Source: a virus. From it: DNA of 64,000 nucleotides. Below the pieces are notes generated by a model. The model did not search any database and had not been told where the DNA came from. It saw only the letters and a program-made list of their open reading frames with translations. The stretch lies in IMG/VR virus record IMGVR_UViG_3300047557_002951, positions 95,557 to 159,556 of that record; one strand, given 5' to 3'. The position numbers and the translations under genes were made by a program. Positions 8,241 through 36,359 of this stretch are shown here, in pieces (the first letter of the stretch is position 1; each line of letters starts with the position of its first letter).

Positions 8241-10272
8241 TTAACCGATGGTTGGAGCAGTAAGAGCAACAGGAGTTGTTTCTGCTGATGCCAAATCCAG
8301 AGGGAAGTTATGTGCGTTCCTCTCATGGAGCACTTCGAAACCAAGATTTGCTCGGTTAAGAATGTCTGCCCAAGTGTTAATCACATGACCTTGACTATCA
8401 AGAAGTGACTGATTAAAGTTAAAACCGTTACTCTGTTTCCTTAAATTTACCATCTTTAAGGAGAGGACTATATCTTCATCCCAGTAGGATGTTGGGCGCT
8501 AGTGTCGTATTACATTCCACGCTTGGAAAACCGACTAGTCTCTGAACCTTTCCAAGAAGCGTCTTGGACTTGGCTGCTGATTACCCATTTATGGAGGGCT
8601 TCCAGCAATTCACCCAAAGTTTACCGTCAAATTGCTAGGACGGGACCCCGACGATTGAGGTTAAATGCCATCGTAGAAACACCAAGAGCAGCGAACCAGA
8701 TTCCAACTACAGGCCATGCAGCAAGGAAGAAGTGTAGACTGCGTGAGTTATTAAAGGAAGCATATTGGAAAATAAGGCGTCCGAAATAACCATGAGCAGC
8801 AACGATGTTATAAGTCTCTTCTTCTTGGCCGAACTTGTAACCATAATTCTGTGACTCTTGCTCAGTTGTTTCACGAACCAAAGAAGAAGTCACGAGCGAT
8901 CCATGCATTGCTGATGCGAGAGAACCACCGAAGACACCAGCCACACCAAGCATGTGGAACGGATGCATAAGAATGTTGTGCTCTGCTTGGAATACAAGCA
9001 TGTAGTTGAAAGTACCAGAGATACCCAGAGGCATCGCATCAGAGAAAGAACCTTGACCGAAAGGATAGACCAGGAATACAGCAGAAGCAGCAGCAACAGG
9101 AGCACTGTAAGCAACGCAGATCCAAGGACGCATACCTAGACGGTATGAAAGTTCCCATTCACGACCCATATAAGCATAAATGCCGATAAGGAAGTGGAAC
9201 ACTACAAGTTGGAAAGGACCACCATTATAGAGCCACTCATCTAGAGAAGCAGCTTCCCAGATGGGGTAAAAGTGCAGTCCAATAGCATTGGACGAAGGAA
9301 CAACAGCACCAGAGATGATGTTGTTTCCGTACATTAAAGAACCAGCAACTGGTTCACGAATCCCGTCTCTTATCCCAATAAAACAGTCATATCTTGCGAC
9401 TTAGACCGTTTCAGTTGACCTATTTGATTTGCTCGTTTTGCGTTTTCTACTCTTCCACCATTTTCTACCCACTCTTTCCACTCATTAATATAAGAAATAC
9501 ATTCTTTAATTCTTTCACTTCTTCTATTTCCCATATGGGGAAGTATTTTTTCCAAAATGAAAAGAACTTTTTCTCTATTTCCTATATGAAGGACATAAAC
9601 TGGTTTTCCTTTGAGTGTTTTTCTATTAGGTACAAAATAGGGTTTATCTACAAAATTACTTAGTTTAGCAACCACATCTTCATCAGTCATAACAAGACGA
9701 ATGTATGGTGCTGGCGGTGCTTTAGAAAAGTCATAACGGTCTTTAGAACGATTATCTATTCCAAAGTATCCTTCACCTTCTAAAATTCCTGCAATCCAAG
9801 TAATTTGTGATTCTGTTAAATCAAGCATTTTGACTTCGCATCTACTGTTATATTTATACAGCAAGTGCGAATAAAAGTCAACTGTGAGATTTGGACTATA
9901 TCTTCACCCTTTAAATTTTTTAAAGGTGCTGGGCACTCTAGCCTGTTATTAAGGGGACTAAACCCCTCAGGTAGTCTCTGAACCTTCCTCAAGTGTACTT
10001 GAGGCTTGGCTGCTGATTGCCTTTCGGTTTCCAGCAATTCACCCAGTTTTAACATCATCCTTACGGATGAAGGACACAGATTAAAGCAGTATGTCTACGG
10101 GAGGTGCTGCAATAAATGCAACAATAAAACAGATAGTTGCCGCAAGAAGGCAAGGAATCATAAGAACTCCGAACCAACCAACATACAACCTATTATCGGT
10201 TGAAGTTACCCAGGAACAGAATTGTTCCCAGAGGTTTTCGCCAGAACGGCGTGAAGCAATTGAAGCAGTCAT
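8241..10272 (-). CDS. psbA: photosystem II D1 protein, three exons (10272-10091, 9368-8658, 8430-8241)
   Basis: Exons of 182+711+190 nt = 1083 nt give a 360-aa D1; junctions restore PPVDI/DGIREP and AFNL/NGFNFNQ; Glu130 form. Confidence 0.97.
8431..8657 (-). ncRNA. group I intron 2 of psbA (227 nt, no ORF)
   Basis: 5' exon ends in U with P1 ACCU/GGGU; P AATTGCTGGAAG, Q AATCAGCAGCC, R TTCAGAGACTA, S AAGATATAGTCC; terminal G at 8431. Confidence 0.93.
9369..10090 (-). mobile_element. group I intron 1 of psbA (722 nt) carrying a homing endonuclease
   Basis: P1 GACAU/GUGUC with U.G pair; P/Q/R/S core at about 9890-10045; terminal G at 9369. Confidence 0.93.
9370..9828 (-). CDS. intron-encoded single-motif LAGLIDADG homing endonuclease
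   Basis: [12 protein letters not shown] motif; start MLDLTE downstream of TATAAATA at 9851-9858. Confidence 0.85.
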
Positions 10273-10294: not shown

Positions 10295-10397
10295 AAGTCC
10301 AGGGGGAACTGGATGGTTACAGTATATCCCACACCACCCTCCAGTGTGGGTATGAGAGACGGATTTTACTTGCCCATTAGTCTCGGTAGGGCAAGAT
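10295..10397 (-). ncRNA. structured psbA 5' leader, PhotoRC-II-like motif
   Basis: Hairpin CTTGCCC/GGGCAAG whose loop GAGAC can pair with GTCTC; hairpin CCCACAC/GTGTGGG whose loop GGAGGG can pair with CCCCC; directly upstream of psbA; family name from recall. Confidence 0.7.
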
Positions 10398-10470
10398 AAA
10401 AAGAAAAGTATTGTATTTTCAATGTTCGGTGATGCAGTTTGTCAGGAAACCCTGACTTCCCTCACCGACT

Positions 10471-16015: not shown

Positions 16016-16981
16016 TTACTGACTGATCCGGTTTACGGCAAGTCGTGCTCGGTTGAGGATAGAACCACTAAGGGGAACATATCCAAGGTCATCAGCAATT
16101 GATTGTGCCTTTGAACTCAGGGCGTAGTTGAGTGCTCCACGAATGGCAGGAGCGTTAGAACCATTGCCAGTCTTATATGCAAGAATCCAAGTCAGAGTTG
16201 AAATTGGATAAGAAGTTGCACCAGCAGGATTTGGATTTTCGCCAGCAAGGTTCGCATCCAGTTTGATGCCATTCAGTGCGGCAGAACCAGCAGCAGCAGT
16301 AGGAAGAACAAACTTACCTGCTTTATTTTGAAGTGCTGCTGCTTGGAGTTTATTTGCTTTCACAAATCCAGTGTTCACATAACCAATCGCACCATTGCTT
16401 TGACGAATGCGACCAGCAACACCTTCATTACCTTTAGCACCAATACCAGTAGGCCAGTTTACAGACTTAGCAGCACCAGCAGTCCAACCACCAAATGCTT
16501 TCAGAGAGTTAGTAAATGCAAAGGTAGTTCCAGAACCATCAGAACGATGAACCACAGTCATAGGACCAGCAGCACATCCAACTTGGTTCCAGTTCTTAAT
16601 CCGACCAGCAAAGACATCAACTGCTTGCTTCTGAGTGAGTTTCAGAGTACATCCTGGTTTGTTATAGGCAATAGCAATAGTACCACCAACCATAGGAATT
16701 TGTACGACACCACGCTTTACTTTGGCGGCATCTGCTGCGCTGATTGCTTCATCACTTGCTCCGAAGTTAATCGTTCCCGCAAGGAATTGACGAACACCAG
16801 CACCAGAACCAACGGACTGATAATTAACCCGATTCCCAGTAGCTCGTGCATAGTCAGCAAACCATCGTTGATAAATTGGAGCAGGGAATGAAGCACCTGC
16901 ACCGTTAATAGTAGGTCCAGCAAGAGCAGCAGTAGGAACAGCAGCAACTAAACCAATAGCAAAAATATTTTTCAGTTTCAT
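16016..16981 (-). CDS. pstS: phosphate ABC transporter substrate-binding protein
   Basis: GAGASFPAP, YQSVGSGAG, FGASD, RSDGSGTT motifs; signal peptide. Confidence 0.96.
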   Translation of the reverse strand: MKLKNIFAIGLVAAVPTAALAGPTINGAGASFPAPIYQRWFADYARATGNRVNYQSVGSGAGVRQFLAGTINFGASDEAISAADAAKVKRGVVQIPMVGGTIAIAYNKPGCTLKLTQKQAVDVFAGRIKNWNQVGCAAGPMTVVHRSDGSGTTFAFTNSLKAFGGWTAGAAKSVNWPTGIGAKGNEGVAGRIRQSNGAIGYVNTGFVKANKLQAAALQNKAGKFVLPTAAAGSAALNGIKLDANLAGENPNPAGATSYPISTLTWILAYKTGNGSNAPAIRGALNYALSSKAQSIADDLGYVPLSGSILNRARLAVNRISQ

Positions 16982-17031
16982 AAAAAGTTTTAGAAGTGAA
17001 TTGACTTCACGAATAATGATACCAGAAGACA

Positions 17032-17063
17032 AGCTTAAAGTCAACTAAGATTTGGTTAAGGTT
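17032..17063 (-). promoter_or_regulatory. putative Pho box
   Basis: CTTAACC / CTTAGTT / TTTAAGC repeats at 10-11 nt pitch upstream of pstS. Confidence 0.55.
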
Positions 17064-17126
17064 TCGATTACCAAATAAAAAAGCACCCAAAAAATAGGTG
17101 CTTTCACTCAAGTTATGAGTAAGTTA

Positions 17127-17233
17127 TCAACCAACAATACTATCTCTCCACTCTTCACTCATATTCACCATAATTGCTTCTGCTGCTTCTGGGGTTTCAG
17201 CATATCAGTATAAAACATATTAGTATTTTTCAT
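17127..17233 (-). pseudogene. deletion chimera: gene start (MKNTNMFYT) joined out of frame to the C-terminus of a repeated-domain protein (YAETPEAAEAIMVNMSEEWRDSIVG)
   Basis: Second part closely matches the domain in 36752..37123; frames do not join. Confidence 0.6.
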
Positions 17234-17242
17234 CTGCTCTTA

Positions 17243-17340
17243 AATTGGTTCGCAATACTATTTATAAAAGAAAAGAGGGCATTTCTGCCCTCCAATCTCT
17301 ACCTTAAAGATGCGAACCAATTAAGGCATCATTATTTATA
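17243..17340 (-). ncRNA. late promoter / small RNA / terminator / late promoter cassette, copy 1
   Basis: Shares scaffold with 34744-34837; see findings. Confidence 0.6.
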
Positions 17341-17342
17341 CC

Positions 17343-18809
17343 TTAGAACTTAAAGGTTGTTTGTAAAATTCCTCCCCAATTTGAAGAGTTACCAGCAAGG
17401 CGCTGATTATCACTACCATAAATGATAGCAGGGGTGACGCTGATGTTATCAGACACTTGATACTTGTAGAAGATTTCAAGCATCGTGGACTTCTCAAGGT
17501 TCTCACCAGTAGGAGCTTGACCGATAGCAACACCAGCAGAGTTACCATCAACAAATACATCATCCCAAGTGAGACCAGCAAACCAGGACTGACTATTGGT
17601 AGCATCACTTTGGGTGCCACTTACAGTGTTCCAACCATAACCACCAGAGATGGAGGGAACCCAACCAGATTGGGTTGGTTGCCAGTAAGCGTTGATAGCA
17701 TAACCGTTGGAAGTTTGACCAGGAACAAGAGTTCCAGAAGCGCCGTTCAGACCGTTGTAGGTACGAACACGAGTGCCTTCAGTACCATAACGATAACCGA
17801 AAGCAGCACCCCAGTTAGTACCACGATAACCGATTTGTGCCAGAGTATTCAGAGCACCAGAACGGTCAAACTCACCAGTGGAACTATCACTGCCGTTTTG
17901 GGCAACATAGTTTACGCCAGCAACAAGACCTGTGCTCTTGCCATATTGAATGCCGAAACCAGAACCAACTGCCTTGTTATAAACACCAGGAGCACCTGCT
18001 ACTTGGAAGAAGTCAAGAATCTTGGAGTTATATGCCGAAGGAATCCAAGAGATTTCAGTATTACGAACCAGAGCGCCAGCAGTAATAGTGGTGGTGTTAT
18101 TAAACGCAGGGAATGAATAGTACAGACGATCGATAACTACATTGTTGCCAACTTCACTAGAAGTGTTATCTGCTTTATCTAGTTTGAAGATTGAAGAACT
18201 GGAACCGAAAGGATTGCTGCTAAAGTTGGCAGAACGCAAACGAGTACGAAGTAGATCCTTACCAGTGAATGAAGTATCCAGGTTCAGACGCAGATCGTAG
18301 TTAAATGCGGTGTGAGTGATATCACCATCTTTGGTCTGGTAGTTATCAACACCACCGATTACGAAGTTTGCTTCACCACGCAGTTTGGTAGTAGTGGAGA
18401 ACTGTTGTGCTTCAAGTGTAGTGACTTGTGCTTCCAGACCATCTACACGACCTTTGAGAACTGTAAGTTCTTGTGCGAATTCTGCCTGAAGACGCTTAAG
18501 TTCATCAGTAACTTCAGTCACGCGGTCAAGGCAAGCATTCAGAAGTGCTGCTGCCTCATAACGAGTCATAGCACGAGCACCACGGAAGGTGCCGTTAGGA
18601 TAACCAGCAACGCAACCATAACGCTCTACGAGGTTGCTAAGTGCTTGATATGCCCAATCAGTTGGTTGGACATCAGAAAATTGTGTAATACTTGTGACCT
18701 GTTCTTGTGAATATTGATTTACTCCAGATGTAAGGTCAGCAGCCATCGCTGCAGGAGCAACAATACCTAGAGCAACAGGTGCAAGCATCAGTTGTTGAAA
18801 AAATTTCAT
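17343..18809 (-). CDS. cyanobacterial outer-membrane porin (SLH + OprB, Som family)
   Basis: FSDVQPTDWAYQAL SLH domain, FSTTTKLRGE, C-terminal TTFKF. Confidence 0.93.
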   Translation of the reverse strand: MKFFQQLMLAPVALGIVAPAAMAADLTSGVNQYSQEQVTSITQFSDVQPTDWAYQALSNLVERYGCVAGYPNGTFRGARAMTRYEAAALLNACLDRVTEVTDELKRLQAEFAQELTVLKGRVDGLEAQVTTLEAQQFSTTTKLRGEANFVIGGVDNYQTKDGDITHTAFNYDLRLNLDTSFTGKDLLRTRLRSANFSSNPFGSSSSIFKLDKADNTSSEVGNNVVIDRLYYSFPAFNNTTTITAGALVRNTEISWIPSAYNSKILDFFQVAGAPGVYNKAVGSGFGIQYGKSTGLVAGVNYVAQNGSDSSTGEFDRSGALNTLAQIGYRGTNWGAAFGYRYGTEGTRVRTYNGLNGASGTLVPGQTSNGYAINAYWQPTQSGWVPSISGGYGWNTVSGTQSDATNSQSWFAGLTWDDVFVDGNSAGVAIGQAPTGENLEKSTMLEIFYKYQVSDNISVTPAIIYGSDNQRLAGNSSNWGGILQTTFKF

Positions 18810-18903
18810 AGAAATATTTTTGTTTGTTCTATAGGACAAAAAGTTAAGAATTACAACAGAATTCCCAACCGAGTATTTATTATAGGACGGTTCTCAAAAT
18901 TTG

Positions 18904-19710
18904 TCAAGCGTCCGACTTAGATGGTTCGGTAATCCGACCAAGATAAGGATCAAAGGAAGTAATTTGATCCACTGTGAAATTGGCACCTCTTTGATGCCAA
19001 AAATTTCTAATTCCATCATGACTATTACGATGAAAAATATCAATATGATCGGGATGAATGGATGAGCCAAGTTCAATTTTATAGAGAAAAATTGGAGTGG
19101 CATAAGTACACCCAGAATTATAAATCAAATCATCGGCTACTGGACGAGGCTTTACTCCATTATCAAGTTTATACTTATCTCCACGAATATGATACTTTAT
19201 AAGTTTTTCTGCATGATGTCTCGTAATGACATAACAAGCCGTTGAGAAATCATTAACAAATCTTGTATGAATTGGCACTACAATATCGCCAGTACAAATG
19301 ATGGCAAGTTGAATGACATCCCAACAATAGGGAACTTTAGCAATAAAATCAGACCAAGTGAAATTCCAACAGTGTGCAAGACTCATATCACAATCATCTT
19401 CCATAATAATCGCATAAGGACTATCAGAAGTATTATACCAATGATTAATTGCTTTCAAATGTGATGTAACACACCCAATTTCACCAGATGTCATCATATC
19501 TGGGTACTTACCTTTAATAACATCACTCAAATCATCATCTCTACCATCATGCGCAGAAATTCTCATATAATTTTCAATTTCCCAGTGTTTAAACTGAGAT
19601 TCCATGTATTCCCATCTTTCTGGTTGATCGTCCAGATTAATACAATAAACTGGACCAAAATTTTTTAGTTTATGTACAGATTTATTTTTTTCCATTAGAT
19701 TGTCATCCAT
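18904..19710 (-). CDS. glycosyltransferase family 25
   Basis: YCINLD...ER, GEIGCVTSH, IIMEDD. Confidence 0.85.
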   Translation of the reverse strand: MDDNLMEKNKSVHKLKNFGPVYCINLDDQPERWEYMESQFKHWEIENYMRISAHDGRDDDLSDVIKGKYPDMMTSGEIGCVTSHLKAINHWYNTSDSPYAIIMEDDCDMSLAHCWNFTWSDFIAKVPYCWDVIQLAIICTGDIVVPIHTRFVNDFSTACYVITRHHAEKLIKYHIRGDKYKLDNGVKPRPVADDLIYNSGCTYATPIFLYKIELGSSIHPDHIDIFHRNSHDGIRNFWHQRGANFTVDQITSFDPYLGRITEPSKSDA

Positions 19711-20501
19711 CTTTCAGGTATTAGATCCTTTGTATTTTTATTGGAGTTACCTTCTCCAAACCATTTTATTGGTGCAATTACTTTATCTGAATTTGCAAGC
19801 CAAGCCCCCCACCAAGAAAATGAAGAGTTTGCAATAATATGATATGTACACAATGTCATAAGACAAAGATCGACATAATGATCCTGAGATTCGGAGATCA
19901 TAAAACGATCAGAATCAAATAAACTTTGCTCTTTGCACCATTCAACATCATCAGAAAAAACTATCACTGGAATTTCAGAATCAAATGATTTTAATGCTTC
20001 TTCATAATAATCCAAATCAAGAGTAGTATGATTTGGATTTTTAAGATAATCAGTTCTCCTCACATGTAAACTAATTGCATCACCAACAGATTCCATCATA
20101 TCTTTACATGGTTGTAAAATATGATCCCGAAAAGAAAAATCTTCTCTAATTTCAGATTCGATGTGTTTAAAATATTTCTCAGACTGAAAAAATCCAGCAA
20201 GGCTAATTTCATCTGGACACATATTGAAAAGAATTTCATCGAAATGAAAATGTCTTTCTTCTGCTATCGGTGCATATCCTCGGTCAAGTAGTTTAGTATT
20301 GCGCGGAAGAACATTAATCATATTGAACGCATCAAACAATTCAATCTTCATATCAAATCCATAAGGATCTTTAATGATATGATCATGTCTTGGAATACAA
20401 AAATCGTATCCACGATTTCTAGCAATACCTCGCAATGATGCATATTGAAACATCTGATTTCCAAGTCTGCCAAGTTGCCCTAAATGATTAAATGCCAACA
20501 T
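19695..20501 (-). CDS. GT11 alpha-1,2-fucosyltransferase-like
   Basis: GRLGNQMFQYA, HVRRTDY, IIANSSFSWWGAWL. Confidence 0.92.
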   Translation of the reverse strand: MLAFNHLGQLGRLGNQMFQYASLRGIARNRGYDFCIPRHDHIIKDPYGFDMKIELFDAFNMINVLPRNTKLLDRGYAPIAEERHFHFDEILFNMCPDEISLAGFFQSEKYFKHIESEIREDFSFRDHILQPCKDMMESVGDAISLHVRRTDYLKNPNHTTLDLDYYEEALKSFDSEIPVIVFSDDVEWCKEQSLFDSDRFMISESQDHYVDLCLMTLCTYHIIANSSFSWWGAWLANSDKVIAPIKWFGEGNSNKNTKDLIPERWMTI

Positions 20502-21315
20502 TTAATTGTCTCCTCAATTTCTTTACATATTTTTGTTGCTCATAATAATTCACTAATCTTTCTTTGTCCCAAGTTCGTATTGAGTTCCACAAGTTAAAAT
20601 TATCCTGCCATTTTGGATTATTATAATGTGAATTGAAAGTTCTTGCATGTTCAAAATGATACCCATAGTTATTAACTCTGCCAACTTTGAGTCCCATTAC
20701 TTGTATTCTATACAAAAATTCACAATCTTCGGGTCCCCAAGACATAAAATTTTCATTCCAAAAATAAGAATCAATTTCAGATTGTTTTCTTATCATTTGT
20801 CCCCACCCCATTACAGATGTACCCAAACGACAACTATCATTAAGTATTTCTAAGTTGAAATTAGATTGAATAAATTTTTCAAGCAATTCGTCAGAATGAT
20901 TTACATGAAGTTGATAAGCACCAACCCCATAAGTATAAACAGCATCATAATTTTGGGTAGTTATCATATGATATGCCTTATGATAACTTGATACTGGAAA
21001 TACTATATCAACATCGTAATTATAAACAATATCAGTATTTGCTTCAAGTAACAAATTGTTTAAAACTTTAGTTTTGTGAAAAAATGAATTCTCATCGCAA
21101 TTAAATATATGTCTCAGATTTATTGGTTCTTTCCCAAAAATATTTTTGATATTTGGTAGTACATTTTGAGAATATATAGACTGTTTATCAGATTCATAAA
21201 CAATAATTTTTGATTCTGGAAAATTATACAAAAGATAAGAAATCGATGTAATTATATTTCTCAATCGGTCATTAGATTCTATCCTACACGGCATTAAAAA
21301 TGTTAAATTTTTCAT
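20488..21315 (-). CDS. GT-A glycosyltransferase (GT2/GT7-like)
   Basis: DVD motif, ENFMSWGPEDCE. Confidence 0.8.
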   Translation of the reverse strand: MKNLTFLMPCRIESNDRLRNIITSISYLLYNFPESKIIVYESDKQSIYSQNVLPNIKNIFGKEPINLRHIFNCDENSFFHKTKVLNNLLLEANTDIVYNYDVDIVFPVSSYHKAYHMITTQNYDAVYTYGVGAYQLHVNHSDELLEKFIQSNFNLEILNDSCRLGTSVMGWGQMIRKQSEIDSYFWNENFMSWGPEDCEFLYRIQVMGLKVGRVNNYGYHFEHARTFNSHYNNPKWQDNFNLWNSIRTWDKERLVNYYEQQKYVKKLRRQLNVGI

Positions 21316-21327
21316 TTTACTAACACA

Positions 21328-22170
21328 TTAAAAATTTATTTTTGTCCATTGACTTGGAATTAAATCTTTAGTATCCAAAAAAGATTGGTTTCTTCCAAAC
21401 CAAATTGATGGTGCAATTACAGTCTTATTTTCATTTTCACTCAGCCATGCCCCCCACCAACTAAAAGAACTATTGGCAATAATGTGATCACTACAATTAG
21501 ATATTAAACAAAGATCAAAGTGTGCTTTCATAATACTATCAGATACAAAATCATTTATAATAAAATTTTCTCCGCTGAAAATTTTTTGATTTTTGCACCA
21601 TTCTACATCATTTGAACAAATTATATAAGTTCTATCTTTACCCATGAAATCAATAGATTTTTTGTAATAATCCATCGGTAAATTATAATGATTGTTCTCT
21701 ACTCCCGGATAATCATAAGTGTCGGAAAATCTACGAATAACAATTGATATGGGATCATATTTTAAATATTCACCAAAAACAGCATTGACTTCATCTAAAA
21801 TGTTTGACTTGAAAGTAAAATCTTTTCTAATTTCACTTTTTGCATTTTGAAAATATTTTTCAGTTTCGAAATATCCTTTGAGAGTTACATTATCTGGACA
21901 CTCATTAAAAAGTTCTTCACAAAATTCATACTGATGTAATTCAACTTCATCACCATCAATATAACCAAATCTATCACCAAGATAATTCATCCCAAAACAA
22001 TGATGGAGTTGGTGATGCGTTGAAATTGCATTACCAAAATTTGTAGCATCCTTATGATTGGGTATGCAGAAATCATAATTCATATTCTTTGCAATCCCAA
22101 CAAGAGATGCATATTGAAACATTTGATTTCCAAGTCTTCCATTTTTACCAAGTATGTTCATCCCAATCAT
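21328..22170 (-). CDS. GT11 alpha-1,2-fucosyltransferase-like
   Basis: GRLGNQMFQYA, IIANSSFSWWGAWL; divergent donor motif IVIRRFSD. Confidence 0.88.
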   Translation of the reverse strand: MIGMNILGKNGRLGNQMFQYASLVGIAKNMNYDFCIPNHKDATNFGNAISTHHQLHHCFGMNYLGDRFGYIDGDEVELHQYEFCEELFNECPDNVTLKGYFETEKYFQNAKSEIRKDFTFKSNILDEVNAVFGEYLKYDPISIVIRRFSDTYDYPGVENNHYNLPMDYYKKSIDFMGKDRTYIICSNDVEWCKNQKIFSGENFIINDFVSDSIMKAHFDLCLISNCSDHIIANSSFSWWGAWLSENENKTVIAPSIWFGRNQSFLDTKDLIPSQWTKINF

Positions 22171-23027
22171 TCAATCATCTCCCATTCATTCGGAATTATA
22201 TCTGCCATATCATAATGGCTATACATTGGACCAAACCAATTATTATAATGTGGAGAGATTATTTGTTTATTTTCATTTTTTATTAGCCATGCCCCCCACC
22301 AACTTAAAGAACTATTAGCTATAATTCCACCTTTACACATAGACATTAAACACAAATCATAAAATGGAACTAAAGGATACTCCATAGCACCATCTCCCAC
22401 TTGAACTTTTTGGTTAAATTTTACTTCATTTTCCGATATAAAAAATCTATCTGGCTTAAATATATCTTGCTTTTTGCACCAATTAGAGTCATCAGATAAG
22501 ACAATAACAGAAAGATTAGAATCAAATCTATCTAAAGCTTTTTTATAATATGATTCACTTAAAAGAGGATGATATTCTTGTACCCTAACGTAATCACCTC
22601 TCCTCACATGTAAAAATATTGCATCACCAATTTCATCCATTACTTCCAAACAAGAAGATTTAATATCATCATTAAATTCATAATCTTCTCTAATTTCATC
22701 AGAAATGTGTCTAAAATATTTTTCAGTCTGAAAGAATCCACTGATATCTACATTATCTGGACAAGTATCAAAAAAATTTTCATCAAAGTTAAATTTTTTA
22801 ATTTCATACAATTTACACTCACTACCATTAAATCCCTTATTTTTTTCACTGACATTAGTCATCTGAAATGATTCAAATAAACAGTATTTTGTCTTTCCAA
22901 TGTGATTTTCCGGAGGCACTAAAAAATCAAACCCTCGATTTGCCGCAATTCCACGAAGAGAAGCATATTGAAACATTTGATTTCCCATTCTACCGGTTGA
23001 GCCAAGTCCATTATAACTTATCGCCAT
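22167..23027 (-). CDS. GT11 alpha-1,2-fucosyltransferase-like
   Basis: GRMGNQMFQYA, HVRRGDY, IIANSSLSWWGAWL. Confidence 0.92.
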   Translation of the reverse strand: MAISYNGLGSTGRMGNQMFQYASLRGIAANRGFDFLVPPENHIGKTKYCLFESFQMTNVSEKNKGFNGSECKLYEIKKFNFDENFFDTCPDNVDISGFFQTEKYFRHISDEIREDYEFNDDIKSSCLEVMDEIGDAIFLHVRRGDYVRVQEYHPLLSESYYKKALDRFDSNLSVIVLSDDSNWCKKQDIFKPDRFFISENEVKFNQKVQVGDGAMEYPLVPFYDLCLMSMCKGGIIANSSLSWWGAWLIKNENKQIISPHYNNWFGPMYSHYDMADIIPNEWEMIE

Positions 23028-31356: not shown

Positions 31357-31367
31357 GATCAGGTCTG

Positions 31368-31445
31368 CCATGCACGCCACCAATTCTTTAACTGGAAATT
31401 GGAAACCAGGCGGAGAATTAATTCCCCATCCGCACCAGGGCAAGA
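31368..31445 (-). ncRNA. wcaG-like structured RNA
   Basis: Two UGGYG elements, stems GCGGA/TCCGC and CCAATT/AATTGG, possible CTGG/CCAG pseudoknot; upstream of gmd/fcl genes; family name from recall. Confidence 0.65.
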
Positions 31446-31643
31446 TTATTGTCGTTCCGAGACAAAATTATTGATAATTTCCGATTGCTTAAGAACTTGA
31501 TCTAGAGTTGGAAACTCTGGAAATTCTGATTTACCAGAATTTTGATGTTCCAAATTAGAAATCTCATATTTCATACAGTATTCATCATGTAACATATTAT
31601 ATGCTTGCTTGAAAATTTCAAATCGTAATTCATAAGGTGTCAT
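31446..31643 (-). CDS. hypothetical protein
   Basis: AAGGA RBS; MTPYELRFEIFKQA. Confidence 0.7.
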   Translation of the reverse strand: MTPYELRFEIFKQAYNMLHDEYCMKYEISNLEHQNSGKSEFPEFPTLDQVLKQSEIINNFVSERQ

Positions 31644-33440: not shown

Positions 33441-33511
33441 AGCGGATGATCGGTTCTGCCCCGACGACCTCTGGGTGGAAACCAGAAATTATACTATTTA
33501 ACTACATCCGC
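33441..33511 (-). tRNA. trnG: tRNA-Gly(UCC), atypical T-loop
   Basis: Acceptor GCGGATG/CATCCGC; arm TCTGG-TTTCCAC-CCAGA; T-loop GGCAGAA. Confidence 0.75.
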
Positions 33512-33770: not shown

Positions 33771-34730
33771 TCAAGTACTCCACAAATCTTTGGCGTGAAT
33801 TTCGCGGTGACAATTACTACAAACTATTATGCAGTTTTCCAGTTCTTTCTTTTGGCGTTCAAATCCCCAATAACAAAATCGTCTAGAATATGTTGGAGAT
33901 TTTTTACTTGGATCTACATGATGAAACTCTAATGAATTGATGCATTGATCATATCCACACACAGAACAACAACCACCCATATATTCAACTGATTTTTCTT
34001 TTCCCTTTATTCCCCTCTCAACAAAATTTTTACTATCACAAGATTTGCATGTTTTACTATGAGTCCCAGATCCGGTATTTTCTTCTGTGAGAACTATATC
34101 ACATTGTTTACAAGAATTTTTTCCAGTATTTCTACCAGTAAAGATAACATCCGAAAGATTATTCACTAGATTAGCCGAAAATTCTTTTTCTAGTTTCTTC
34201 CTTTTGTTAATTATATTATGTTCTTCTCGGTGGCAATTAGAACAAAGTAAAACACATTTATTCAGTTCATTTCTAATCGTATCCCAAGTCTTATTCATCA
34301 TTTTTGATGGATTAAATTCTTTTTCTTTCGGGTTCAAATGATGAAAATCTAGGGCAGTTAAATTTTTGTCATATCCACATTTTTGACATTGATTTCCTTT
34401 ATACTCTACGCACTTTTGCTTAAAAAACAATCTTTTGTTTAGAGTATTATTGCAATAGCAAGATTTACAGTACGAAGAATAAGTATTTTTATTTTTTCTA
34501 TCATATGCATTTTCTGGAGTTAACTTTGCATTACAAGAACAACAGTATTGATTATTTTTATCTACTCTTTTTGGATAATTATAACCCTGCGTAAAAGATT
34601 TATTTTTAGTTTTTAGATTAAATTTCTTTAACCAGTATCTTATAGTCGTTTGTCCCTTATTAAAATAAAGAGCTAATTCTCTCATGGACATACCTTGTTC
34701 CACAAGAGACGCTAGTAGGTCTCTATTCAA
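33771..34730 (-). CDS. free-standing endonuclease with N-terminal HTH and two tandem HNH domains
   Basis: Two copies of CxxCGYD...L(D/E)FHH..P...ELxxCxxxCSNCHRExH; HTH GMSMRELA...TIRYWL. Confidence 0.85.
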   Translation of the reverse strand: MNRDLLASLVEQGMSMRELALYFNKGQTTIRYWLKKFNLKTKNKSFTQGYNYPKRVDKNNQYCCSCNAKLTPENAYDRKNKNTYSSYCKSCYCNNTLNKRLFFKQKCVEYKGNQCQKCGYDKNLTALDFHHLNPKEKEFNPSKMMNKTWDTIRNELNKCVLLCSNCHREEHNIINKRKKLEKEFSANLVNNLSDVIFTGRNTGKNSCKQCDIVLTEENTGSGTHSKTCKSCDSKNFVERGIKGKEKSVEYMGGCCSVCGYDQCINSLEFHHVDPSKKSPTYSRRFCYWGFERQKKELENCIIVCSNCHREIHAKDLWST

Positions 34731-34743
34731 TTCTTATTCTCCG

Positions 34744-34837
34744 TAGTTGATTGGCATTATTATTTATACAAGAAAAGGAGCATTTCTGCTCCTTTTCCAC
34801 CTTAAAGACGCCAATCAACTAAGGCATTTTTATTTAG
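34744..34837 (-). ncRNA. late promoter / small RNA / terminator / late promoter cassette, copy 2
   Basis: Shares scaffold with 17243-17340; see findings. Confidence 0.6.
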
Positions 34838-34847
34838 TTGTTTTCAA

Positions 34848-34920
34848 CAGGCGCATCTGGATTCGAACCAGAGATGAGGAGGTAGAAGCTCCTAGTGATA
34901 ATCCACTTCACCATGCGCCC
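34848..34920 (-). tRNA. trnR: tRNA-Arg(UCU)
   Basis: Arm AGGAG-CTTCTAC-CTCCT; GGTTCGAATCC. Confidence 0.92.
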
Positions 34921-34961
34921 ATAACAAGACAATCATAACATATTTATGTCATATTGTCAAG

Positions 34962-35241
34962 TCCGGAATGACAGATTCGAACTGTCCCTTGAGCGATTTT
35001 CTTACCACTATAGTTTTCACTACCAATCATAAGATCGTTTGTGGTCTGGACTTTCTCTTTTCCATATCCATAAGGACTTAGGAACCACCTTTTAAGTCTC
35101 TACACCTTCATCTTACGATGCTTGGCTCGGGATTGCCATTTTAAAGGTTTCCCCGAATTTAAGTGGATTCACACACAGAGTTTCCAACTGTGGTGCTCAA
35201 ATTATTTAAGTCGCTTGCCTCTTCCGCTGGGCTAATTCCGG
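34962..35241 (-). tRNA. trnL: tRNA-Leu(UAA), intron-containing (exons 35241-35208 and 35000-34962)
   Basis: Spliced arm AGCGA-CTT/AAAA-TCGCT; acceptor CCGGAAT/ATTCCGG. Confidence 0.88.
35001..35207 (-). ncRNA. group I intron of the trnL(UAA) type (207 nt)
   Basis: Starts AAATAATTTGAGC after U34; core AAATTCGGGGAAACC, GGCAATCCCGAGCC, GTGTAGAGACTT, AAGAGAAAGTCC; ends in G. Confidence 0.9.
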
Positions 35242-35268: not shown

Positions 35269-35340
35269 TGGTTCTGCAGAGAATTGAACTCTGTTCACAG
35301 CTTTATAAGAACTGGGCCTTAACCAATAGGCGACAGAACC
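35269..35340 (-). tRNA. trnI: tRNA-Ile(UAU)
   Basis: Arm CAGTT-CTTATAA-AGCTG; acceptor GGTTCTG/CAGAACC. Confidence 0.85.
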
Positions 35341-35379
35341 AATAAGACAATCGTACCACATAAGAAGTAGATTGTCAAG

Positions 35380-35461
35380 TCCTCGTTTTCAGATTTGAAC
35401 TGAAACTCCGTTAGGAAACGGTTTTTGAGACCGTCGCGGCTACCGATTACGCCAAACGAGG
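35380..35461 (-). tRNA. trnL: tRNA-Leu(CAA)
   Basis: Arm ACGGT-CTCAAAA-ACCGT with variable arm. Confidence 0.9.
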
Positions 35462-35607
35462 AAGTGAAACAATCATACCACATAAGAAGTAGGTTGTCAA
35501 GTATCAGTTCCATAAGATCCAAATCTCCGAAACCAACAAGACAATCATAGCACATAAGAAGCGGATTGTCAAGTCCTTACACAAGAGATCAAATAGTTTA
35601 AAAGTTA

Positions 35608-36285: not shown

Positions 36286-36359
36286 TTACCTGAAAATTGC
36301 CTTCAAATATTTAGTAAACCACTCAAACCACATAAGAATTGGATCGCCAAGACTCCCAC

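Follow-up and report, generated by a model that had tools for sequence, protein, structure and literature searches.

A mobile cassette with complementary, co-varying arms precedes homing endonuclease genes in freshwater T4-like cyanophages and most likely restricts their translation

The DNA analyzed here is a 64,000-nucleotide stretch (the window) of IMG/VR virus record IMGVR_UViG_3300047557_002951, positions 95,557 to 159,556, and the whole contig of 159.6 kb is a T4-like cyanomyovirus by content. The window carries group I introns, PhotoRC-II and wcaG RNA motifs, a tRNA cluster and pstS, with its genes nearly all on one strand. Two copies of a compact cassette lie in it, both on the minus strand. 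Copy 2 and its setting (33771-34960) are given below in 5' to 3' order of that strand, with positions counted from the start of the window.

34932..34960, minus strand: sigma-70-type early promoter (TTGACA-17-TATGAT) of tRNA-Arg, 11/12 matches, a member of a repeated promoter family
34847..34921, minus strand: tRNA-Arg(UCU), directly 5' of copy 2
34831..34838, minus strand: P1, late-promoter-like ACTAAATA, with CTAAATA at 34831-34837
34799..34827, minus strand: arm 1, 29 nt, ATGCCTTA-GTTGATTG-GCGTC-TTTAAGGT
34773..34796, minus strand: intrinsic terminator between arm 1 and P2, a GC-rich hairpin AAAAGGAGCA-GAAA-TGCTCCTTTT with GAAA loop and T-tract
34761..34768, minus strand: P2, perfect T4-type late promoter TATAAATA
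34739..34757, minus strand: arm 2, the 5'UTR complementary to arm 1, made up of the leader ATGCCAATCAACTA (34744-34757) and a GGAG Shine-Dalgarno sequence (34739-34742)
33771..34730, minus strand: HNH homing-endonuclease-like gene, 319 aa, TTG start at 34730, the putative regulated gene of copy 2

Only 9 nt separate tRNA-Arg from copy 2 and, because a near-consensus sigma-70 promoter drives the tRNA, arm 1 should also be carried on the early tRNA transcript as its trailer. The predicted +1 of P1 is the G of GCCTTAG, 6 nt downstream of the motif, and that of P2, which is separated from the terminator T-tract by CTTG, is the G of GCCAATC. Arm 1 can fold as a local hairpin (GCCTTA / TAAGGT), the 5' strand and loop of which contain a variable segment that we call the address. 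Arm 1 can also pair with the leader over 14 bp with one G.U (34808-34821 versus 34744-34757) and, past one mismatch, through a CC:GG extension into GGAG, giving a duplex of -24.1 kcal/mol. An earlier reading made from the letters alone (the sequence-only reading) had listed the motifs of copy 2, this 14-bp pairing and a double-HNH gene with a TTG start behind it. All the motifs lie on the minus strand where it placed them, the pairing is correct, and the 319-aa ORF matches Pfam HNH in two stretches and has a weak N-terminal helix-turn-helix.

That reading had also described another copy, 17 kb away, with the same scaffold and a different core that pairs with its own leader. We find it at 17227-17340 on the minus strand, flanked by an OprB/SLH porin-like gene and pstS, and its leader is changed to compensate the core:

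17333..17340, minus strand: P1, TATAAATA
17301..17329, minus strand: arm 1, scaffold as in copy 2 with a different core, ATTGGTTC
17267..17293, minus strand: terminator, GGAGGGCA-GAAA-TGCCCTC followed by a T-tract
17259..17266, minus strand: P2, TATAAATA
17234..17255, minus strand: arm 2, the 5'UTR TTGCGAACCAATTTAAGAGCAG, complementary to arm 1, duplex -23.7 kcal/mol
17165..17233, minus strand: 22-codon remnant of a GIY-YIG-type endonuclease gene

The endonuclease gene expected behind copy 1 is thus not intact. Compared with close relatives that carry a 209-aa GIY-YIG-type gene, the locus has a 1,067-bp deletion by which the gene is lost after codon 9-10 and the cassette itself is left intact. 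As a result of the deletion, P2 of copy 1 now leads into pstS (16016-17044).

The scaffold pattern has two matches in the window against 0.00 expected from shuffles. Among 75 late-promoter-like motifs in the whole contig, the upstream and downstream sequences form a duplex of -23 kcal/mol or lower only at copies 1 and 2 (median -10.8 kcal/mol). A simple terminator scan calls the terminator of copy 1 and misses that of copy 2, because the fold of the latter pairs the A-tract with the T-tract. At gathering thresholds, Rfam 15 gives no match at either cassette in a search of the whole window, and at E <= 10 there are sub-threshold terminator-like matches only, the best of them scoring 23.9 bits against a cut-off of 55.8; the families compared include C4 antisense RNA, HEARO/IscB-associated RNA, Sib and the cyanophage motifs already known.

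The cassette is a recurrent element with a conserved anatomy. Three pattern scans of IMG/VR (T-tract, P2 and upstream TAAATA; T-tract, P2 and TGCGA; a terminator variant alone) recovered at least 205 distinct cassettes, with at least 180 distinct arm-1/leader combinations and at least 24 address classes; the scans were anchored on motifs and all these counts are lower bounds. The order of parts is P1 (N[A/C]TAAATA), arm 1 in a small hairpin, intrinsic terminator, P2 (TATAAATA), arm 2 as 5'UTR and a free-standing endonuclease gene. A mini-ORF in arm 1 (ATG-CCT-TAG) was considered and set aside, as it is not kept across cassettes. The element occurs in a clade of freshwater T4-like cyanophages. 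In a BLAST search of 50,697 phage records, Synechococcus phage S-SRM01 was the only named phage with the cassette; it carries four copies, each with a different core, a matching leader and a GIY-YIG-like ORF downstream. Phage B3 has the tRNA-Arg in common and nothing else of the locus. The S-SRM01 genome paper does not mention the cassette, and full-text literature searches found no description of it.

The cassette is linked to endonuclease genes. Among the downstream ORFs of 100 cassettes examined, 87 have a GIY-YIG-type N-terminus and 3 are of HNH type, and the remainder are mostly NUMOD-containing or truncated relatives, which bears out the nuclease linkage proposed from the sequence. The accompanying suggestion of a type I antitoxin logic does not fit, since the linked ORFs encode DNA endonucleases of 120-330 aa with GIY-YIG, HNH or NUMOD domains; the cassette is not a type I toxin-antitoxin system because its target is not a small (< ~60 aa) toxic peptide.

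The two arms co-vary. Among the matches listed, the median duplex energy of arm 1 with its own leader is -22.6 kcal/mol and with non-cognate leaders -10.0 kcal/mol. Over 12 named arm-1:arm-2 pairs, 93.0% of the cells are paired; column shuffles give 70.6%, and sliding the partner gives 46% or less. Double-sided changes occur in 441 cells compared with 159 in the shuffles. The cassette sequences are related to each other, and the shuffle controls therefore overstate significance, a weakness from which the slid controls and the contrast between cognate and non-cognate leaders are free. These figures agree with the earlier proposal of a modular repeated unit whose core co-varies with its own leader. 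On a structure-blind MAFFT alignment of 146 cassettes, RNAalifold chose the long-range arm-1:arm-2 helix, with compensatory changes at 9/9 pairs. Two further helices co-vary: the local arm-1 hairpin (92.1% paired, 4/5 pairs compensated) and the terminator stem (92.4% paired, 6/6 pairs compensated). As both the local hairpin and the long-range helix co-vary, the 5' strand of arm 1 has to match two sequences at once, namely the opposite (3') strand of the local hairpin and the leader.

The long-range duplex runs from leader nucleotide 4/5 to about 25, that is, across the Shine-Dalgarno region to 0-5 nt from the start codon, and a bulge of 1-2 nt beside the Shine-Dalgarno sequence is conserved. 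G.U pairs are common at the arm pairs (one pair has 25 of them and two more have 14 each), which points to RNA rather than DNA. In all type A cassettes, the architecture described so far, a co-varying terminator hairpin with a T-tract separates the arms.

Both promoters are predicted from late motifs. NATAAATA is the reported late promoter of cyanomyoviruses (PMC2984593), and CTAAATA is the predicted late motif of phage Aeh1, where it ends at -6 (PMC1524935). In the genome studied here, NATAAATA and NCTAAATA occur almost exclusively on the gene strand and are over-represented ahead of ORFs, in contrast to control octamers. P2 lies between the arms and is TATAAATA in 203 of the 205 listed cassettes. 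P1 has that sequence in only 30 of the 205 and is mostly an imperfect late motif, with first bases GAT in 51, ACT in 49, AAT in 45, TAT in 30 and CAT in 20; it may be a weak promoter. Its position is nearly invariant: among the matches listed, P1 stands at a fixed spacing in 87/87 and 62/63 cassettes that were picked without reference to it. A purine occupies the sixth position after the motif in 137/145 cassettes for P1 and in 133/145 for P2, and the predicted +1 of each promoter coincides with the first paired base of arm 1 and arm 2, respectively. A layout with late promoters on both sides, as in promoter early stem-loops (PeSLs), was rejected as a general feature, given that a late motif occurs near the endonuclease stop codon in only 43/178 cases (24%; background 8%).

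An RNA from P1 to the terminator would be 47-54 nt long, and it is predicted to fold into two hairpins in 173 of 180 combinations. With the first 70 nt of the mRNA it is predicted to form a heteroduplex that is favoured over the separate folds by a median of 12.8 kcal/mol. The leader on its own is predicted to be mostly unstructured, with a median of 75% of the arm-2 bases unpaired. In the predicted minimum-energy fold of the short RNA, 4-5 contiguous complementary bases are single-stranded, a small toehold for pairing in trans. The minimum-energy fold predicted for read-through transcripts is the long-range helix.

The cassette is also modular and mobile. Pairs of cassettes with the same address have unrelated upstream flanks in 92% of cases and dissimilar downstream endonuclease genes in 55%, one site can hold cassettes with different addresses, and one endonuclease family occurs with different addresses. 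Flanks are diverse and most cassettes are not beside tRNAs. When cassettes with the same address but different flanks are compared, identity stays at background through the last base before P1 and climbs from P1 on. The first two bases of P1 agree somewhat better with the flank than with the address, and P1 may therefore be in part a joint left by recombination. A terminator type can occur in as many as 16 address classes, and several types are found within each major class. Among the matches listed there is no chimera with mismatched arms, and arm 2 is absent altogether in only 2 of the 65 terminator-selected cassettes. That the arms stay matched across a recombining centre argues for selection on pairing. 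Because address and endonuclease family are uncoupled, we rejected both an operator bound by the endonuclease and an RNA that guides the nuclease; the guide-like role suggested in the sequence-only reading, taken as nuclease targeting, has no support on the same ground, one address being found with different families and one family with different addresses. Orthogonality within genomes, used as a test of action in trans, gave a null result: same-class pairs number 1/29 against 3.5 expected, which is not significant, and cross-duplex energies within genomes equal those of random pairs.

A search begun from endonuclease homologues instead of cassette motifs gave 51 non-redundant loci, of which 33 have the full cassette, 7 a late promoter only and 10 a duplex without canonical P1. 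Nine of these last ten share a second design, type B, known from about 18 loci in all after a further scan. Here, a long hairpin (GGGC...GTCCC) has a variable address in its loop; downstream of it stand a U-rich tail, a late promoter and a leader whose complementarity to the loop extends up to the ATG. Type B has several compensated address variants, and some contigs carry both types. P1 is not conserved in type B, and hence it is not required for the general principle. The number of Ts after the folded terminator is uninformative in the endonuclease-based set, as the fold pairs the A-tract with the T-tract.

Most likely, the cassette keeps selfish homing endonuclease genes untranslated except from their own late transcript. 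Our best reading, offered tentatively, is an RNA-level silencer of the endonuclease translation start that would act in cis on read-through RNA and, through a late RNA of about 50 nt, in trans. The endonuclease mRNA would start at the perfect late promoter P2, and its 5'UTR, from about +1 through the Shine-Dalgarno region to 0-5 nt from the start codon, would pair with about 20 nt of arm 1. Arm 1 could come from two sources: the tail of transcripts of the upstream gene (the early tRNA-Arg transcript at copy 2), or its own late-type promoter P1, which we infer to fire and to yield a two-hairpin RNA of about 50 nt ending at a working terminator. The resulting helix of about 20 bp would bury the ribosome-binding region and leave the endonuclease untranslated, acting in cis where transcripts run past the terminator and probably in trans as well, via the short P1 RNA, while downstream genes on the P2 transcript would stay expressed. 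A possible rationale is that P2 must also serve downstream phage genes, so that translation of the endonuclease would be damped and not its transcription. We consider it likely that pairing at the RNA level masks the start site; that a separate trans-acting RNA is part of the mechanism seems plausible and somewhat short of probable. The dual model is favoured because an invariant P1 with a start-like purine, an independent local hairpin and a terminator that separates the arms together resemble a small RNA gene that runs from promoter to terminator. In its strongest form, which we hold with more doubt than conviction, there would be at least 24 distinct pairs of small RNA and 5'UTR, and in each pair the late P1 RNA (about 50 nt) would target the adjacent P2 mRNA in trans and set endonuclease translation, with freely reprogrammable specificity.

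A separate antisense RNA and an action on read-through transcripts were both offered in the sequence-only reading and are still the two leading readings. If the cassette acts in cis only, in the manner of T4, the helix hides the ribosome-binding region on read-through RNA from the upstream genes or P1, translation is possible only from P2 late mRNA, in which arm 1 is missing, the helix backs up the terminator as a second barrier, and the short RNA has no function of its own. We regard this as rather doubtful, and it is a serious contender: it has direct precedent in I-TevI, I-TevII, I-TevIII, segB and Aeh1 mobE (PMC2988022, PMC2330249) and in marine metagenomic endonuclease loci (PMC2677866), and it agrees with the minimum-energy fold of read-through transcripts, the type B cassettes without conserved P1, the small toehold of the short RNA and the lack of extra orthogonality within genomes. 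However, it leaves unexplained the invariant TAAATA at its constant spacing from arm 1, together with the purine at the predicted start, the separately co-varying local hairpin in arm 1, and a terminator that splits the arms on most transcripts and is integral to both architectures, whereas the described T-even hairpins have none.

Two other explanations give the helix a different task. It could be a site for RNase III or another RNase on read-through RNA, separating for instance tRNA precursors or setting mRNA stability, or pairing could open mRNA structure and so activate translation. A near-perfect helix of about 20 bp that encloses a hairpin would suit processing, as would the place of copy 2 directly behind a tRNA, whose precursor needs processing, and RNase processing is reported for the T4 segB, segG and Aeh1 mobE transcripts (PMC2988022). 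Yet a helix over the Shine-Dalgarno region to the start codon is the classic geometry of repression, the majority of cassettes are not near tRNAs, and the mostly unpaired leader offers nothing obvious to activate, so we think these roles unlikely. We give still less credence to an explanation at the level of DNA, in which the inverted repeat serves recombination or insertion, or binds a protein, for example as an endonuclease operator, with complementarity maintained by template switching between the arms. The cassette is indeed mobile, one address occurs in unrelated flanks with similarity starting exactly at P1, PeSLs (composite terminator/promoter motifs) mediate modular shuffling in T4-like phages (PMC4122927), and I-TevI binds an operator that overlaps its late promoter (PMC2988022). 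On the other hand, G.U pairs are tolerated, the conserved bulge by the Shine-Dalgarno sequence speaks against homogenisation of the arms, a third partner, the 3' strand of the local hairpin, co-varies too, addresses are not tied to endonuclease family as a protein operator would be, and the helix is in register with the +1 of the promoter and with the start codon.

Homing endonuclease genes are selfish and have to be tolerated by the phage, and their quieting is known for a handful of T-even cases only. The cyanophage solution appears to be a portable unit that travels with the gene, and its more than 200 natural variants amount to a ready-made compensatory-mutation experiment. If the action in trans proves true, the cassette would represent a new class of phage small RNA, the first control of homing endonucleases by small RNA and a same-strand, tandem-promoter antisense system, and it would provide orthogonal minimal (~20-nt) translational repressor pairs for cyanobacterial and phage engineering. 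If it acts in cis only, it would still be the largest and best co-varying case of the T4 'late-only translation' switch, and would also serve as a marker of late promoters and free-standing endonuclease genes in cyanophage metagenomes that lack annotation.

Several known systems share parts of this design. The c4 antisense RNA of phages P1 and P7 (immI; Citron & Schuster 1990) is reportedly encoded upstream of its target on the same strand and processed from an operon transcript; its loops are said to pair with the ribosome-binding region of the target, an antirepressor operon, and relatives reportedly differ in specificity through compensated changes. The cassette resembles it in the same-strand upstream antisense arrangement, the pairing with a ribosome-binding region and the compensated changes in specificity, but has no Rfam C4 match, its RNA would run from a promoter to a terminator, and its target is an endonuclease. 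In IS10, RNA-OUT is a small stem-loop RNA whose loop pairs with the extreme 5' end and ribosome site of RNA-IN and which limits translation of the mobility enzyme. The likeness is that of a selfish element that curbs how much of its own mobility enzyme is translated. RNA-OUT is made from the opposite strand, so its perfect complementarity is built in; unlike in IS10, both cassette RNAs would come from the same strand, and their complementarity must therefore be kept by selection.

PeSLs (PMC2839356, PMC4122927) are likewise short conserved modules of terminator and promoter that are found at many unrelated sites and tied to module exchange. Their promoter is of the sigma-70 early type, whereas that of the cassette is of the late TATAAATA type, and for this reason the cassette is not a PeSL; PeSLs also lack flanking complementary arms and a specific link to endonuclease genes. 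Closer are the marine metagenomic 'fractured gene' loci of Dassa et al. 2009 (PMC2677866), which are phage-like and combine 5'UTR hairpins of complementary conserved motifs, an embedded late promoter TATAAATA and free-standing endonuclease genes, and whose hairpins were proposed to attenuate endonuclease translation. Those are simple 5'UTR hairpins, and a terminator between the arms, an upstream promoter, address diversity and a covariation analysis are not reported there.

The T-even hairpins of T4 I-TevI, I-TevII, I-TevIII and segB and of Aeh1 mobE occlude the ribosome site and contain an internal late promoter (PMC2988022, PMC2330249). In these switches early and read-through transcripts are translationally silent and only the shorter late transcript is translated (PMC2988022, PMC2330249, PMC2677866); removal of the I-TevI hairpin in T4 had no endonuclease-mediated effect on viability (PMC2988022). 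The sequence-only reading had recognised no described family in the cassette, which stands as far as Rfam is concerned and does not hold for the cis logic, already described in these papers. As in the T-even cases, the gene concerned codes for a homing endonuclease of a T4-like phage, the helix lies over the Shine-Dalgarno and start region, and the 5' arm would be missing from late transcripts because a TATAAATA late promoter, predicted in the cassette, is placed between or inside the arms. By analogy, the cassette would work like the I-TevI, segB and mobE hairpins, but it departs from them in one defining feature, as an intrinsic terminator stands between its arms and it is not a simple uninterrupted hairpin. 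It differs further in that its 5' arm has a conserved late-type promoter and a co-varying hairpin of its own, and in that it is mobile, common to several endonuclease families and present in at least 24 compensated variants. New relative to these hairpins are the terminator between the arms, the invariably conserved P1 and the co-varying local hairpin.

At copy 1 of the type A cassette (17227-17340, - strand), a design that runs from a late-type promoter (P1) through the arm 1 hairpin, a terminator, a second late promoter (P2) and a leader (arm 2) to an endonuclease gene, the GIY-YIG-type gene has been lost after 9-10 codons. The deletion of approximately 1.07 kb lies at 17120-17233 (- strand) of the window and was defined by reference to close relatives (IMG/VR loci L074, L277, L027 and L073). 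The late promoter of the intact cassette now heads into pstS, and the porin and PstS-type genes (16016-18839, - strand) look like host-like phosphate-uptake genes carried as neighbours.

16016-17044, - strand: PstS-type phosphate-binding protein, 342 aa, adjoining the OprB-family porin
17343-18839, - strand: phage-borne porin of the OprB family, 498 aa, which includes an SLH domain
18904-19710: family-25 glycosyltransferase, adjoining the tandem segments of 19750-23000

These segments (repeat families D1, D3, D4, D5, D7 and D12) are three in number, paralogous and in tandem, with 63-83% identity, which suggests a triplicated gene. Four further RNA features in the window each score above the Rfam gathering thresholds, and the two introns together with the PhotoRC-II motif probably belong to a psbA region.

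8439-8667, - strand: group I intron
9871-10100, - strand: group I intron
10314-10407, - strand: PhotoRC-II motif
31366-31467, - strand: wcaG RNA motif

Copy 2 (34739-34838, - strand) lies behind tRNA-Arg (34847-34921) in a cluster where a repeat of approximately 47 nt stands upstream of each tRNA or small gene. With a near-consensus sigma-70 promoter inside (TTGACA-17-TATGAT, - strand), this repeat family looks like a repeated early-promoter module.

34919-34965, promoter on - strand: approximately 47-nt promoter repeat
35337-35383, promoter on - strand: same repeat
35459-35505, promoter on - strand: same repeat
35531-35577, promoter on - strand: same repeat
36309-36355, promoter on - strand: same repeat

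A single contig of uncertain origin from sequencing run X1 joins 34836 straight to 34918, which suggests a relative that has the cassette directly after the early promoter, without tRNA-Arg. Rfam also calls a tRNA at 33441-33511 (- strand) that is missing from the ARAGORN list.

Two cassettes, in the L210:7583 and L227:3056 regions, are intact from P1 through arm 1 and the terminator to P2; their leader is unrelated and the endonuclease gene is absent. These orphan arm-1 units are perhaps leftovers of recombination at P2.

A second endonuclease cassette design, type B, was seen in the L034:2067 region, at L335, L373 and L394 and at approximately 14 other loci, sometimes on the same contigs as type A. 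The upstream promoter is not conserved in type B cassettes (approximately 18 loci compared). Their hairpin is long (GGGC...GTCCC), with a U-rich tail and a variable loop; the leader, 3' of the late promoter that follows the hairpin, is complementary to this loop, and several compensated loop/leader variants occur among the type B loci.
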